From: an uncultured Puniceicoccaceae bacterium
GTDB taxonomy: Bacteria > Verrucomicrobiota > Verrucomicrobiia > Opitutales > Oceanipulchritudinaceae
Reading direction: 5' to 3'
Assembly (NCBI GenBank): GCA_964430955.1
Contig: CAYSHY010000004.1
Span: 9,971-73,970, forward strand
Length of the DNA: 64,000 bases
A program made the translations under genes and the position numbers. This document shows, piece after piece, positions 8,908 to 22,387 of this stretch (positions within the stretch are counted from its first letter, which is position 1; each line of letters opens with the position of its first letter). Under the pieces are notes generated by a model, which was not told where the DNA came from, made no database searches, and worked only from the letters and a program-made list of their open reading frames with translations.

Positions 8908-10134
8908 TCAAGCTTCATTAGGCGCCCGCTCGTCTTTTGGCAGGCCGGTTTCGTGATCAATACCGTTTTGGCTTAACCACATCTCCAAACGGCGGATCTT
9001 TGGGAGCAGTGTGTTGTGCGACCAGCGGCGGCCGCCTTCGTAAGACCAATAAAGGCTGTGGTAGGAGTTGTAGTACTGGTCAAACTTCTCGATATAGGTA
9101 TCGCGTTGCTCCTCGAGCTCGATCAGGGACTCGCGAGCCTTCATCAGGCTCTTTCGAATACCTTCAAAGATTTCCTTGCGCGCCTTGTGAAAGAACTCAT
9201 CGGGCAGCCCGGGGATTAGCGCCTCCAGCATGGGATGCAGTCCTTCAGCCTTCCCGTCAGGGTGAGCTTCCACCCATTTGGCCACTGCCTGTAGCAGATC
9301 TTCCTTGCCGGCAGCATCGTGTTCTTCGAATGGCCGCTTGATGCGCGATTTTTCCTGAAGGGCTTCAAATGCTGCGAACGCGTCTGGGTAGAGCTTCGCA
9401 AACAGGTTATGTAGCGTCCGGGAAATGGGGAGTCGGGTATACTCCTCGGCGTGGAAGCCTTTGTCGCCGGGGCTGCGTTGCTTCATGCTCAGGAAGTTGC
9501 GGATAACTTCCTCCAAACGGTCGAGGTTGGAGAAAGCCGCGTCGCTAATAATCGCAAAACGGTCCGGCTCATGATCGATTCGCTGTAGCAGGGCTTCGTT
9601 GTATATCGCGTAAGTCTTAAAGACCAGTGACGGATCGGAGACAGCTTCCCAGTCGCGCCGCTTGACGAAGGAGACAAACACCTCCAGCGGGTGGCGATAG
9701 ATCACCAGGCCGCGCGCAGAGGGGAGCAGGTCCATCCAAAAGTCGACAAAGAGACATGTGCGGGGCTCTTTCCAGCCCCAGAATCCCTGCCGCTCTCGGG
9801 CCTCGATCAGCGATTGCGCCTCCAGCTGCTCTTGCTCGGTGGGCTCAAACACGAGCGGCGTGCGCCTGTAAATGCCTGTGTCGAAGAAGCGGGGCACATC
9901 CTCACGATTGCGCTCCAGCGCACGCAGGTGGAAGTCCAGCACATCCTTGTCCTCGAAGTGGCCGCGCGGATTTCCTTCGTTGCCTTCGAGCAGGTTCTGG
10001 CCGATGTCGACGCCCATGCGTTGCAGCAGGCTAGCCAGGAACGATGTTCCGCTGCGATGCATGCCAAGGATCAATAAGGGACTCCCTGCCGCTGTCTTGC
10101 TTGTCTCCATCAGCGCCATAGAGGAAAGCGGCAT
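8908..10134 (-). CDS. Sulfotransferase family protein with long helical C-terminal extension
   Basis: N-terminal PAPS-binding 5'-PSB-like loop LLILGMHRSGTSFLASLL, then typical FHLRA.. and WGWKEPR (W-K-D/E-P-R) sulfotransferase motifs. Confidence 0.7.
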   Translation of the reverse strand: MPLSSMALMETSKTAAGSPLLILGMHRSGTSFLASLLQRMGVDIGQNLLEGNEGNPRGHFEDKDVLDFHLRALERNREDVPRFFDTGIYRRTPLVFEPTEQEQLEAQSLIEARERQGFWGWKEPRTCLFVDFWMDLLPSARGLVIYRHPLEVFVSFVKRRDWEAVSDPSLVFKTYAIYNEALLQRIDHEPDRFAIISDAAFSNLDRLEEVIRNFLSMKQRSPGDKGFHAEEYTRLPISRTLHNLFAKLYPDAFAAFEALQEKSRIKRPFEEHDAAGKEDLLQAVAKWVEAHPDGKAEGLHPMLEALIPGLPDEFFHKARKEIFEGIRKSLMKARESLIELEEQRDTYIEKFDQYYNSYHSLYWSYEGGRRWSHNTLLPKIRRLEMWLSQNGIDHETGLPKDERAPNEA

Positions 10135-19333: not shown

Positions 19334-20419
19334 TTACACGGCCCCATGTTCGCGCCAGATGGTGCGGATGAGGGTGCTCTCTATGTCCGGCGTGGTTTGG
19401 GCCTCTCCGAGCGTCTTCATGGTTACGAAGCGCAGCTTGCCCGCCTTTACCTTCTTGTCGCGGCGCATGGCGTCAACGAGCTTGTGAATGAGCAGGGGTG
19501 ATCGCAGTTGCAGCGGTAGCTCGTAGCGACGTATCAACTCGCGCACCCGAGTGACATCGTCCTTCTGAATGAAGCCCAGTTCTTCCGACAAGCGCGCGGC
19601 CATCACCAGTCCAATCGCCACGGCCTCCCCGTGAAGGTATTTACCATAACCAGCCACATTCTCGATAGCGTGGGCGAAAGTGTGCCCTAGATTCAGCAAG
19701 GCGCGTCCTCCTGATGCAGCTGTTTCCCGCTCGTCCTCGCGGACAATGGCGGCCTTAATCTCGCAGCTTCGGTTGATGATGCCGGGAAGCTCCGCAGAAT
19801 GGCTGTTCAGCACTGGCAGGCTTTCCAATCGGTGGAATAGTGGGGCGTCTGCCAACATCCCGTACTTGATGACCTCGGCCATCCCTGCCGAGAATTCTCG
19901 CTTTGGCAGGGTATCGAGCATTGCCACGTCTGCATAAACTCCCTGTGGCTGCCAGAATGCGCCAACCAGATTCTTTCCCGCAGTGAGATTTACGCCTGTC
20001 TTTCCGCCGACCGAGCTGTCGACCATGGCGAGAAGAGTGGTGGGAACCTGAATGTAGGGGATGCCACGGAGGTAGCTCGCTGCGGCAAAGCCCGCCAAGT
20101 CGCCAATCACCCCGCCGCCGAACGCCACGAGAAGACCGCCGCGATCGATGCGCTTCCGAGCCAGAAATTCACAAATGCGCTCGAGCTGTACGAACGACTT
20201 TGTCTTCTCTCCGGCAGGCAATACAAGATGGGGACAGTCTCCGAGCGCCTCCTCCAGGAAAACGGGTTGCGCCGCTGCTACGTTGCGGTCGATGACGACT
20301 GCGAACTTGCGGCCAGATTCGCGCAAAGGCTCGAGGAAAGCAGCAACCATGTCTGAGAGGTCGCGCCCCGTCTCTATCTTGTAGCTCCGTTCGCCAAGTT
20401 CAACAGTGAGGGAAGGCAT
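19334..20419 (-). CDS. aroB: 3-dehydroquinate synthase
   Basis: GGGVIGDLAGFAAASYLRGIPYIQVPTTLLAMVDSSVGGKTGVN, LNLGHTFAHAIE, HGEAVAIG. Confidence 0.93.
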   Translation of the reverse strand: MPSLTVELGERSYKIETGRDLSDMVAAFLEPLRESGRKFAVVIDRNVAAAQPVFLEEALGDCPHLVLPAGEKTKSFVQLERICEFLARKRIDRGGLLVAFGGGVIGDLAGFAAASYLRGIPYIQVPTTLLAMVDSSVGGKTGVNLTAGKNLVGAFWQPQGVYADVAMLDTLPKREFSAGMAEVIKYGMLADAPLFHRLESLPVLNSHSAELPGIINRSCEIKAAIVREDERETAASGGRALLNLGHTFAHAIENVAGYGKYLHGEAVAIGLVMAARLSEELGFIQKDDVTRVRELIRRYELPLQLRSPLLIHKLVDAMRRDKKVKAGKLRFVTMKTLGEAQTTPDIESTLIRTIWREHGAV

Positions 20420-20477: not shown

Positions 20478-21533
20478 TTAGTTGTTCCGCGATGCCGTTG
20501 TCCCATCCTCAAAGAGGTCAGCCTGGGTAACCGACGGGGAGGGCTCCTCCTTGCGATGCAGGTGACGCGGGGGCCGACTTACGCGCTGCGAAATCGAGTA
20601 TTTCTGCTCCTCTACAATGCGGTCGCAAATCTCGCTGACGTGCATCTTCAGCCACATATGTGTATCGCTTCCGGGACGAAAGTCTGCCCGGCCGTAGGCG
20701 TCCACCCGTCCATGACGGAGTAACTGGTCGTTCTGGCGAAAGCCCTGTTCATCCCCCGGCTCATAGACCGCAAAAGCTCGCCCGCCATTCTTGCGCACGA
20801 CGCTGAATACCGGCACGTCGCTGGGGCCGTCAGCAACGTAGATCATGTTGTCCATGGGCACACGCCGATCGCTGTGCTCAACCTTGGCGTTCACATCCAG
20901 CTCGGGCATTTTGTTGCTGCCCTTGTTGATTTCGAAAATGAAGCGGGTCTTGATCGTGTTGTCCACCATGACCCCAATCTGCGTGAACTCGCTCTCCTCG
21001 GGGTTGATGTCGATCAGTTCCGGCTGCGTCAGGTATCCCGGCGGTGGTGGATTTTCCACCAGTTCGCACCCATAGATCCCGTCCACATGTGGTGCAATGG
21101 CGCTGCCGCGAATCATCTCGGCCAAACCAGTGGAGACAATGTAATGTTCCAGAGCGATTCCGTATTTCTGGTATTCGGGGCGGCTGCGGGGAATGTCCTT
21201 CAGGGTCTGGAAAAACTCGGGAAGACCCTTGTAGAACTCCAGCTCGGCGCCCAGTTCCTTGAGCACCTTGTTGTTAAGTCCTTTGAAGATCCCCGCGCGA
21301 ACGTATGTCAACAGGTGATTCAGGTAAACTGTGTCAGGCGAGACCCTGCGCCCCTGCTTTGCGTAGTATTCTGGCAGGGTGTTCACTTCCTTCCAGAACG
21401 TGTTCTCGTCGACTCCGTAGCGTTTAAAAAGCGGCCACTGCATGTAGCCGGGGATCAGCGTGCTGTCGAAGTCCCAGATGCAGGCTATGATAGACTGACG
21501 ATGCAGACGGTCGGATGACATCTCTGCAAACAA
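20478..21533 (-). CDS. HAD-superfamily hydrolase (putative phosphatase) with extended cap and C-terminus
   Basis: Motif I IWDFDSTL (DxDxT). Late motif [10 protein letters not shown] (GDGxxD-like). 351 aa. Confidence 0.6.
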
Positions 21534-21615
21534 GCATTACGCGCCCCACGTTCACGGGCAAGCGTTGAAGCGATGGGGGAAGGAACGAATCGGGGAGCGG
21601 CGAGGTCTTCCGGCG

Positions 21616-21649
21616 CGCCATGCCTCGGGCTTACCGTGAAGGCATGGCG
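21616..21649. other. 10-bp-stem hairpin in the intergenic region
   Basis: CGCCATGCCT (21616-21625) pairs with AGGCATGGCG (21640-21649) across a 14-nt loop. There is no flanking U-tract on either strand. Confidence 0.5.
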
Positions 21650-21663
21650 AGGCGTGAGCGCTT

Positions 21664-21765
21664 GATGGACTTGGATGGACGTGGGGGCTGGGCGCCTAAT
21701 GATTCTCTTGTCCATTTCAGTCCATGACCGTCCATGCGTGTCCATTCTCGTCCATCTCTGTCCAT
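21664..21765. promoter_or_regulatory. Helically phased hexamer array: 2 x (G)ATGGAC inverted copies, then 6 x GTCCAT direct copies, all at 10-bp spacing
   Basis: GTCCAT at 21710, 21720, 21730, 21740, 21750 and 21760 (exact 10-bp period, variable 4-nt spacers). Reverse-complement copies GATGGAC at 21664-21670 and 21674-21680. The array lies 131-232 nt upstream of the HAD gene start (21533, minus strand) and 70 nt downstream of the NUDIX stop (21836). Confidence 0.9.
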
Positions 21766-21835
21766 GGGGGCGAGGATTCGGTGCGGGCGCTATGCCGTGG
21801 GTTTTCTGCGTGAGCGTAGGTCAGGTCTCGCGATT

Positions 21836-22387
21836 CTACGGCAGGGTCCAGGCCATCATGAGGGACGCAATGTGCATGGACTGGCAGAAGTCGCCGGTCT
21901 TGATTGCCTGTTCCAGCTCCTTTCGCGTCATGAAGAGAGCTTCGATCTCTTCGCTCTGATCGAGTTGCTGTTTATGCTGCAACGACAATCCGCTGGCGAC
22001 GAATGTATGAACGCGGTTGGTCTGTCGAGCCGGGTTGGGGTAAGCGGTTCCGACTGCGCGGATGCTGGAACAGGAATAGCCTGTCTCTTCCCGAAGCTCC
22101 CTCACCGCAGCCTGTTCCGGAGTTTCGCCATCGTCGATCACACCTCCGGGGAGCTCCAGACAGATCCTCTGGGCTGCGTGGCGATACTGCCGCACCAGAA
22201 GAACCCGGCCTTCCTCGTCTGTCGCCACGACGTGAACCCAATCCGATTCTTCCAGCACGTAATAGGGGGCAACCGGCTGGCCATTGGCCATCAGGCAATC
22301 ATCGACGCGCACGGTCAACCACCGGTCCCTGAGCAAGTACTGACTACCTGTTATCTTCCATGGTTCGATCTGTGTGTAGTTGCTCAC
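21836..22387 (-). CDS. NUDIX hydrolase (ADP-ribose pyrophosphatase-like)
   Basis: Nudix box [24 protein letters not shown]. The ORF-track start at 22495 would overlap the upstream gene by 107 nt. An in-frame GTG at 22387 lies directly after that gene's stop codon (22389-22391) and is preferred. Confidence 0.8.

Follow-up and report, generated by a model that had tools for sequence, protein, structure and literature searches.

An orphan array of helically phased GTCCAT hexamers upstream of a HAD-aroB gene pair in an Opitutales genome, a possible docking platform for an oligomeric DNA-binding protein

In the genome of an uncultured Puniceicoccaceae bacterium of the order Opitutales (phylum Verrucomicrobiota), eight copies of the hexamer GTCCAT, six direct and two inverted, are found in the spacer between a NUDIX hydrolase gene and a HAD-like hydrolase gene. 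The affiliation to Opitutales/Puniceicoccaceae is also what matches at the protein level indicate. The array is contained in positions 9,971 to 73,970 of contig CAYSHY010000004.1 (assembly GCA_964430955.1), and this whole 64,000-nucleotide stretch, read on its forward strand, is referred to as the window, whose own numbering is used throughout. The array had been pointed out in an earlier, sequence-only reading, and the positions of the hexamers, their spacers and the 29-nt gap given there are all correct. The locus is composed as follows:

21710-21765, plus strand: six direct copies of GTCCAT with the non-conserved 4-nt spacers TTCA, GACC, GCGT, TCTC and CTCT
21681-21709, no strand assigned: 29-bp gap between the inverted and the direct sets, GTGGGGGCTGGGCGCCTAATGATTCTCTT, 59% GC, no AT-rich unwinding element
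21664-21680, minus strand: inverted pair, GATGGAC on the plus and GTCCATC on the minus strand, also spaced 10 bp
20478-21521, minus strand: HAD-like hydrolase of 347 amino acids, conserved in Opitutales, the gene downstream of the array and its presumed target if the array is regulatory
19334-20419, minus strand: aroB, 58 nt beyond the HAD gene
21836-22387, minus strand: NUDIX hydrolase, the gene upstream of the array, 183 amino acids in databases; its open reading frame (ORF) stays open to 22495 and overlaps a lipoate-ligase-like gene of the same orientation

Since the minus strand encodes both flanking genes, the position of the array is upstream of the HAD gene and downstream of the NUDIX gene, and the order of genes on that strand is lipoate-ligase-like (lplA-like), NUDIX, spacer, HAD and aroB. 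The start of the HAD gene was placed at the ATG at 21521, according to an identical database protein and an alignment of orthologues, which gives a spacer of 314 nt between NUDIX and HAD. Within it, the array is situated 70 nt after the NUDIX stop codon (21836-21838), as had been noted before, and 143-244 nt before the HAD start codon, the distance of 131-232 nt given earlier being valid for a TTG start at 21533. HAD and aroB may form an operon. The surrounding genes (hisC-like, DAHP (3-deoxy-D-arabino-heptulosonate 7-phosphate) synthase, aroA, ribBA and purD) make up a cluster of aromatic amino acid and housekeeping functions, and between approximately 18300 and 32100 the shikimate pathway genes for DAHP synthase, aroB and aroA, together with the hisC-like aminotransferase gene, are grouped among unrelated housekeeping genes.

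The six direct hexamers start at 21710, 21720, 21730, 21740, 21750 and 21760 on the plus strand, hence with a period of exactly 10 bp. The inverted copies, read as GATGGAC, occupy 21664-21670 and 21674-21680 (hexamers proper 21665-21670 and 21675-21680), and the distance from the first direct copy to the centre of the inner inverted copy is 35 bp. The hexamer is perfect in all eight copies and in both orientations, and the bases that flank it are not conserved, with the exception of a C after the T in both inverted copies and in one direct copy. The GC content of the array is 52%. A second match to the exact two-unit pattern does not occur in the 64-kb window, which is the extent that copy counts in the source genome cover. 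For arrays of six units, counted over all hexamers and all periods of 7 to 22, approximately 1e-12 would be expected in 64 kb of the composition of the window, so that a chance origin is excluded, as the sequence-only reading had maintained.

The array is also real in the sense that it was assembled repeatedly. The Logan contigs L120, L121 and L122, which originate from different sequencing runs, share it with the NCBI contig, and the presence of the same array in independent assemblies of the same strain rules out an assembly artefact. A single base differs in L121, namely a T-to-G change inside one hexamer (aligned to 21710-21715; ATGGAC to AGGGAC on the minus strand), and the copy number does not vary among the same-strain contigs. 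If the six direct units are assumed to derive from one decamer, none of the 36 hexamer positions has changed, as opposed to at least 11 of the 20 spacer positions (Fisher p = 1.1e-6). Divergence that is confined to the spacers, together with inverted copies that are beyond the reach of slippage, indicates that the hexamer itself is under constraint. A peptide repeat or a structure with a period of 30 was rejected, since the spacers of units separated by 30 bp match no more often than expected by chance (4/12). Furthermore, in 580 kb of unselected Opitutales DNA the array is the sole non-coding one with at least four copies of any hexamer, a fixed period of 8-22 bp and diverged spacers, and it is thus a specific feature rather than a genomic habit.

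The reading that we favour, with a probability of roughly 0.45, is that the array serves as a one-face, cooperative platform for an oligomeric double-stranded DNA (dsDNA)-binding protein that acts on HAD-aroB. The broader claim, that the hexamers are sites for some sequence-specific dsDNA-binding protein, whatever its purpose, is probable and is common to two of the rivals discussed below, in which the array belongs to a repeat element or to a set of iterons. An invariant 6-bp word with free spacers, a period of one helical turn and inverted copies is what an oligomer reading dsDNA would be expected to select, and inverted copies at equal spacing fit such a reader rather than one of single-stranded RNA. 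What the sequence data show is the layout of the array, selection that acts on the hexamer alone, constancy within the strain and uniqueness; a protein ligand on dsDNA, its cooperative binding and HAD-aroB as its target are inferred.

In molecular terms, the eight hexamers would be recognized by one sequence-specific protein that assembles cooperatively into a filament or a ring, each subunit reading one 6-bp site in the major groove. The exact 10-bp period would put six subunits on one face of the helix, with the DNA laid on, or wrapped around, the protein surface, and the two sites of opposite orientation, 35 bp off, could take a further pair of subunits, which might cap the complex or loop the 29-bp gap. 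Since the array is intergenic and situated on the upstream side of HAD-aroB, with no canonical terminator behind NUDIX, transcription control there is the most economical role; in the run of lplA-like, NUDIX, 314-nt spacer, HAD and aroB, the platform would most likely set the transcription that reaches or starts at HAD-aroB, possibly as an operator, a roadblock or an upstream activating platform. If a protein does coat the array, it would be a very clean means of identifying a DNA-binding factor in the Verrucomicrobiota, a phylum from which we know of no transcription-factor operator, and the eight perfect sites would be an ideal bait for a pulldown or for DNA affinity purification sequencing (DAP-seq). 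Its place among consecutive genes for cofactor and aromatic amino acid functions would also provide a first example of the way in which operons of this kind are subdivided in the group.

As a kind of element, the helically phased platform of short repeats is already known; what sets this one apart is a word that has no match, the unusually perfect copies and the divergent 2+6 layout. A search of the literature on the hexamer GTCCAT found nothing relevant. MraZ boxes are composed of GTG(G/T) cores with 6-nt spacers, and in cryo-EM structures of the MraZ-DNA complex one ring subunit is bound cooperatively to each box in the major groove (PMC12957436). With the present array they share the 10-bp period, a short invariant core, free spacers, direct repeats and the location of all sites on one face. 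However, MraZ boxes come as three or four direct copies upstream of mraZ and the dcw cluster, whereas the array in the window has six direct and two inverted copies flanked by NUDIX and HAD-aroB, and an assignment as MraZ boxes was rejected, as the period fits but the ATGGAC/GTCCAT core holds neither GTGG nor GTGT on either strand.

A second family with comparable sites is that of the OmpR/PhoB-type regulators, the dimers of which bind head-to-tail, so that several adjacent repeats tune the occupancy (PMC4173790), as also illustrated by the run of repeated tor boxes for TorR upstream of torCAD (PMC9239176). The likeness to the sites of this family (the OmpR boxes of ompF and ompC, Pho boxes, ArcA sites with three to five repeats) consists in hexamer- or heptamer-like direct repeats at a period of 10-11 bp, and the spacing on which the sequence-only reading had based its comparison (repeats of 6-7 bp every 10-11 bp) is indeed present, with six copies at exactly 10 bp. 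In contrast, the known sites are degenerate, usually paired and abut or overlap the -35 element, whereas the copies in the window are perfect in eight of eight cases and no promoter-like site was found beside them, and GTCCAT matches no consensus known to us. The Pho box, in particular, is CTGTCAT at an 11-bp period with N4 spacers.

Only one part of the earlier proposal is borne out. Its cooperative direct-repeat platform is favoured by the perfect hexamers, the free spacers, the 10-bp period and the inverted copies, but nothing was found in favour of the more specific idea of an OmpR/PhoB regulator with the HAD gene as a Pho target. The hexamer is not CTGTCAT, the period is 10 and not 11 bp, and a Pho-like reading of GTCCAT would point away from the HAD gene. 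Upstream of 85 HAD orthologues no periodic motif was found, a sigma-70-like promoter was not found next to the array, and genes for a response regulator, a kinase domain, pst or pho functions were not recognized among the window ORFs that were scanned, which are a part of all window ORFs and define the scope of this and of every other gene absence reported here.

Several observations weigh against our preferred platform at HAD-aroB as well. Among the relatives, which are distant (73% identity for the best HAD and 58% for the best NUDIX homolog), conservation of the sites at orthologous HAD upstream regions, as an operator would suggest and as the sequence-only reading had proposed to examine, was not found, nor does any orthologous spacer exist in the databases. 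At 80 metagenomic loci with HAD orthologues of 55-65% identity, there is no 5-mer at a 9-11-bp period upstream, and the five closer orthologues (~70% identity) have neither an array nor a GTCCAY pair at 9-11-bp spacing, so that nothing is conserved upstream of any of the 85. Moreover, the upstream spacers of these five are just 35-110 nt long, and the preceding genes are others (nadA, prfA, transglutaminase-like) in a non-syntenic arrangement. With short spacers and different neighbours in the closest relatives, the array does not belong to a control region that HAD inherited from an ancestor. A candidate regulator gene was not recognized among the scanned ORFs, an array end lies 188 nt from the HAD start codon, and no sigma-70-like promoter was found in 21300-22000, a finding to be read with the caveat that the promoter rules of this phylum are not established. 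The hexamer change in L121 is the only difference among the three same-strain sequences over 400 nt. Finally, an operator for a transcription factor would rarely be as clean as these eight perfect sites, which are more typical of iterons, centromeres and young repeats. The array is a lineage-specific orphan, for which an assignment to a family is impossible from present data. A sigma-54 promoter combined with an upstream activating sequence was considered separately and rejected, since the candidate TGGGGCGCGTAATGCT at 21533-21548 has three mismatches to the consensus and the window contains 88 such matches where 112 are expected.

Of the alternatives, the one that survives best takes the array to be the core of a small repeat element, inserted or dispersed (a relic, or similar to miniature inverted-repeat transposable elements (MITEs) or repetitive extragenic palindromic (REP) sequences), which landed here without a dedicated role in the regulation of NUDIX or HAD and in which the hexamers would be sites for a transposase, a recombinase or a nucleoid protein. 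We consider this unlikely. The 314-nt spacer is lineage-specific, given the short spacers and different neighbours of the relatives described above, the perfection of the hexamers would suit a young copy, and a perfect direct repeat brackets the array in the manner of a target-site duplication:

21652-21660, plus strand: left copy of the 9-nt direct repeat GCGTGAGCG, which resembles a target-site duplication or is due to chance
21808-21816, plus strand: right copy of GCGTGAGCG; the pair brackets the 147-bp segment 21661-21807, which holds the whole array

By our estimate, however, approximately 0.5 pairs of 9-nt direct repeats are expected by chance per 500 nt, so that this pair is near chance level, and its borders carry no terminal inverted repeats, the inverted arms at 21665-21681 and 21749-21765 being internal, with the right arm ending 42 nt before the right 9-mer. 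The array is also present in a single copy in the 64 kb and has no further copy in 513 kb of related Opitutales DNA, and the parts of the 314-nt spacer outside the array likewise have no second copy in the window or at related loci. Genes for a transposase or an integrase were not recognized among the scanned ORFs, and plasmid and phage collections gave no BLAST match.

The inserted-element explanation also draws on other genomes, in which multi-copy intergenic GTCCAT elements were found in metagenome-assembled genomes (MAGs) of Chlamydiae and Rhodospirillales. These have to be seen against a broad background. More than 119 loci were obtained when reference genomes were scanned for GTCCAT at a 10-bp period, and among the matches listed most are perfect 10-bp tandem repeats of GTNCATYNGY, which is a different, slippage-type phenomenon, and approximately 29 are arrays with diverged spacers. 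The ORFs that flank 27 arrays in other genomes, mostly with variable spacers, have no protein family in common. In viral contigs, GTCCAT accounted for 28 stretches as compared to 48, 103 and 43 for control hexamers of the same composition, with comparably many variable-spacer arrays. Repetition of a short word every 10 bp is therefore common whatever the word, and a universal GTCCAT-binding system was rejected, as there is no common flanking family and each control gives more stretches; GTCCAT is no universal code.

The exception is found in the Chlamydiae, where three MAGs contribute four loci with many-copy arrays of the polarity ATGGAC(n)...GTCCAT(n). By our estimate, Chlamydiae represent well under 1% of the reference bases, which implies an enrichment in this group. 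The elements are located at:

L068, 2747-2860 and 7472-7594
L075, 1740-1823
L014, 2470-2613
L009, 5324-5388

At least three of the copies (two in L068 and one in L075) are palindromic 6+6 intergenic elements of one environmental MAG. The palindromes are ~115 bp long, with ~6+6 GTCCAT at a 10-bp period and doubled terminal hexamers (ATGGACATGGAC...GTCCATGTCCAT), and they sit among the housekeeping genes lpxB, DUF374, UDPGP and frr. To our knowledge, such palindromes of environmental Chlamydiae are undescribed. They resemble the array in the window in the hexamer, the 10-bp period, the variable spacers, the outward polarity, the intergenic position among housekeeping genes and the affiliation to the Planctomycetes-Verrucomicrobia-Chlamydiae (PVC) superphylum, but they are symmetric (~6+6), have doubled terminal hexamers and occur as multiple copies in AT-rich genomes, whereas the array has an asymmetric 2+6 layout and a single copy in 64 kb. 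It could be imagined that GTCCAT arrays of 10-bp period and outward polarity are a code read throughout the PVC superphylum by an oligomeric DNA-binding protein not yet described. This code would be represented in the present Opitutales genome by one asymmetric platform (2+6) and in environmental Chlamydiae by multi-copy 6+6 palindromes among housekeeping genes, and it, if true, would constitute a new pair of cis-element and protein for chromosome organization or global regulation. This extension is a long shot, and homology between the Chlamydiae elements and the array is unproven, since the control hexamers show that arrays arise for arbitrary words.

In MAGs of Rhodospirillales, an element of ~200 bp with conserved flanks is dispersed (L012, L016, L028, L042, L065, L082, L102, L109 and L111). 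It is composed of the palindrome GGGAGGTACCTCCC, followed by TGTCATCAAA and then by three or four units of TGTCCATNAA, and individual genomes have it at several loci, where the genes downstream of it (arsR-like, carB, ispH) are unrelated. If the array in the window were one copy of a dispersed element, it would belong to a new repeat class of helically phased hexamers, and the elements of Chlamydiae and Rhodospirillales suggest that such a class, hitherto undescribed, exists.

A further alternative places the function of the array at the level of RNA, which we regard as distinctly improbable. A minus-strand transcript, produced by read-through from NUDIX or as the leader of HAD, would present six AUGGAC motifs (of the ANGGA form) to an oligomeric RNA-binding protein, resulting in titration or attenuation in the manner of CsrA, TRAP or HutP, and two of these motifs could form base pairs with the GUCCAUC copies, both of which lie downstream; in a variant of this model, a small RNA of the plus strand would carry six GUCCAU motifs. 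No canonical terminator follows NUDIX, so that minus-strand transcription probably runs through the array, and its GAUGGAC and GUCCAU arms can pair. The plus strand has a weak terminator-like site after the array (21782-21799), which consists of a hairpin and GGTTTTCT, and the gap sequence at 21690-21704 is complementary in 13 of 15 positions to 21532-21546, a stretch that closely precedes the HAD start codon, and this pairing as RNA could mask the region of translation start. The neighbours take part in aromatic amino acid biosynthesis, a pathway that in Bacillus is controlled by the repeat-binding protein TRAP.

With the targets of such RNA-binding oligomers the array shares a regular train of short motifs, separated by free spacers and placed close to genes of amino acid biosynthesis, in a leader or intercistronic region that is probably transcribed. 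Nevertheless, the motifs of these oligomers (11 GAG/UAG triplets for TRAP, 2x3 UAG for HutP, ANGGA in CsrA sponge RNAs) are 3-5 nt long with periods of 5-7 nt or irregular spacing, and we know of no RNA-binding precedent for an exact 6-nt motif at an exact 10-nt period. Rfam returned nothing at the gathering score in the window, with just a chance-level hit to a small Cajal body-specific RNA (scaRNA) at E <= 10, and no family at the GTCCAT arrays of 17 other loci. On both strands, RNA folding gives no significant improvement over shuffled sequences (z = -1.7, -2.1 and -0.9), and the minimum-energy fold leaves out the pairing of 21690-21704. A terminator/antiterminator pair is absent, and an intrinsic terminator is missing on the minus strand from the array to the HAD region; of the two terminator-like hits on this strand, one is a weak stem of 5 pairs at 21551-21539, just before the HAD start, and the other a stem within HAD at 21450-21432. 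On these grounds a CsrB/RsmZ-type sponge or CsrA leader (no Rfam family, fold z of -1.7 and -0.9, no minus-strand terminator before HAD) and a TRAP/HutP-type attenuator (the minus strand from the array to the HAD region carries no intrinsic terminator) were both rejected. The inverted copies at a 10-bp period would be left unexplained by an RNA-level function, unless they serve in pairing.

In a third alternative, the array is an iteron- or centromere-like set, the remnant or the active site of a replication initiator, a rolling-circle Rep or a partition protein. Near-perfect repeats with helical phasing are typical of iterons and of parC-type centromeres, and the layout in the window includes one further feature on the HAD side:

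21617-21648, no strand assigned: inverted repeat GCCATGCCT-14 nt-AGGCATGGC with the capacity to form a hairpin, lying between the array and HAD and followed by no U/T tract on either strand

This hairpin, two proximal repeats, a gap and six distal repeats follow one another in an order that recalls the double-strand origins of rolling-circle plasmids such as pMV158. Small replicons with hexamer iterons (rolling-circle bind loci, origins of Staphylococcus aureus pathogenicity islands (SaPIs), circoviruses) have phased short repeats by a hairpin, which are bound by an oligomeric and often hexameric initiator. In the type II centromeres of parC/ParR and in the heptads of the omega protein, near-identical direct and inverted repeats are coated cooperatively by the protein to form a superhelical or ring-like complex. 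However, the parC and omega arrays lie on plasmids immediately upstream of par or regulated operons, with units of 7, 10-11 or 20 bp and without free spacers, and a parMR- or parAB-like operon beside the array was not found among the scanned ORFs. In comparison to the small-replicon iterons, the array lacks an initiator gene, a nick-site motif and an AT-rich region and is set in a chromosomal housekeeping context, and a unit of the array carries 6 bp of information versus the 11-22 bp typical of iterons. None of transposase, integrase, relaxase, rep, dnaA and par genes was recognized among the ORFs scanned, and the lack of similarity to plasmids or phages counts here as well. A replication origin or iteron set, an iteron-like element being among the options of the sequence-only reading, was rejected in the same way, as the cumulative GC skew has no turning point near 21.7 kb and an AT-rich unwinding element is missing, the gap having 59% GC. 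We regard an iteron or centromere function as highly improbable.

Least credible of all is that the array has no specific ligand and is either a slippage-made 10-bp tandem repeat drifting neutrally or intrinsically curved DNA: perfect 10-bp tandem repeats with GTCCAT are very common across phyla, so that slippage can create such periods, and helically phased repetition sums the small bends of any sequence, but the spacers alone have diverged, slippage cannot make inverted copies, the copy number is constant in the same-strain contigs, and the wedge-model bend, an approximate figure, is an unremarkable ~37 degrees over 76 bp (at the 88th percentile among segments of the window), compared to 146 degrees for a phased A-tract control. 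Two suggestions made earlier, intrinsic bending as an alternative and a strain-variable microsatellite as the outcome that would speak against an operator, are thereby both disfavoured.

The decamer repeats that dominate 10-bp scans for GTCCAT, (GTNCATYNGY)n, are widespread across phyla including the Verrucomicrobiota (for example L045, L074, L103, L108, L037, L089 and L029), and these arrays often end in GGTT and often face an inverted partner array (AACCACGGATG...). Four loci from Deltaproteobacterial and Thermodesulfatator MAGs (L019, L031, L038 and L099) have a common hairpin (e.g., AGTCATGCCCAGTCGGGCATGACT), which has no Rfam match and is followed by GTCCATgtaaGTCCATgtgtGTCCATggct. One Mu-like viral contig contains two GTCCAT arrays with variable spacers, of five and four copies (L215, 2502-2560 and L229, 1420-1455), and one of the two directly precedes the ribosome-binding site of the gene after the terminase gene.

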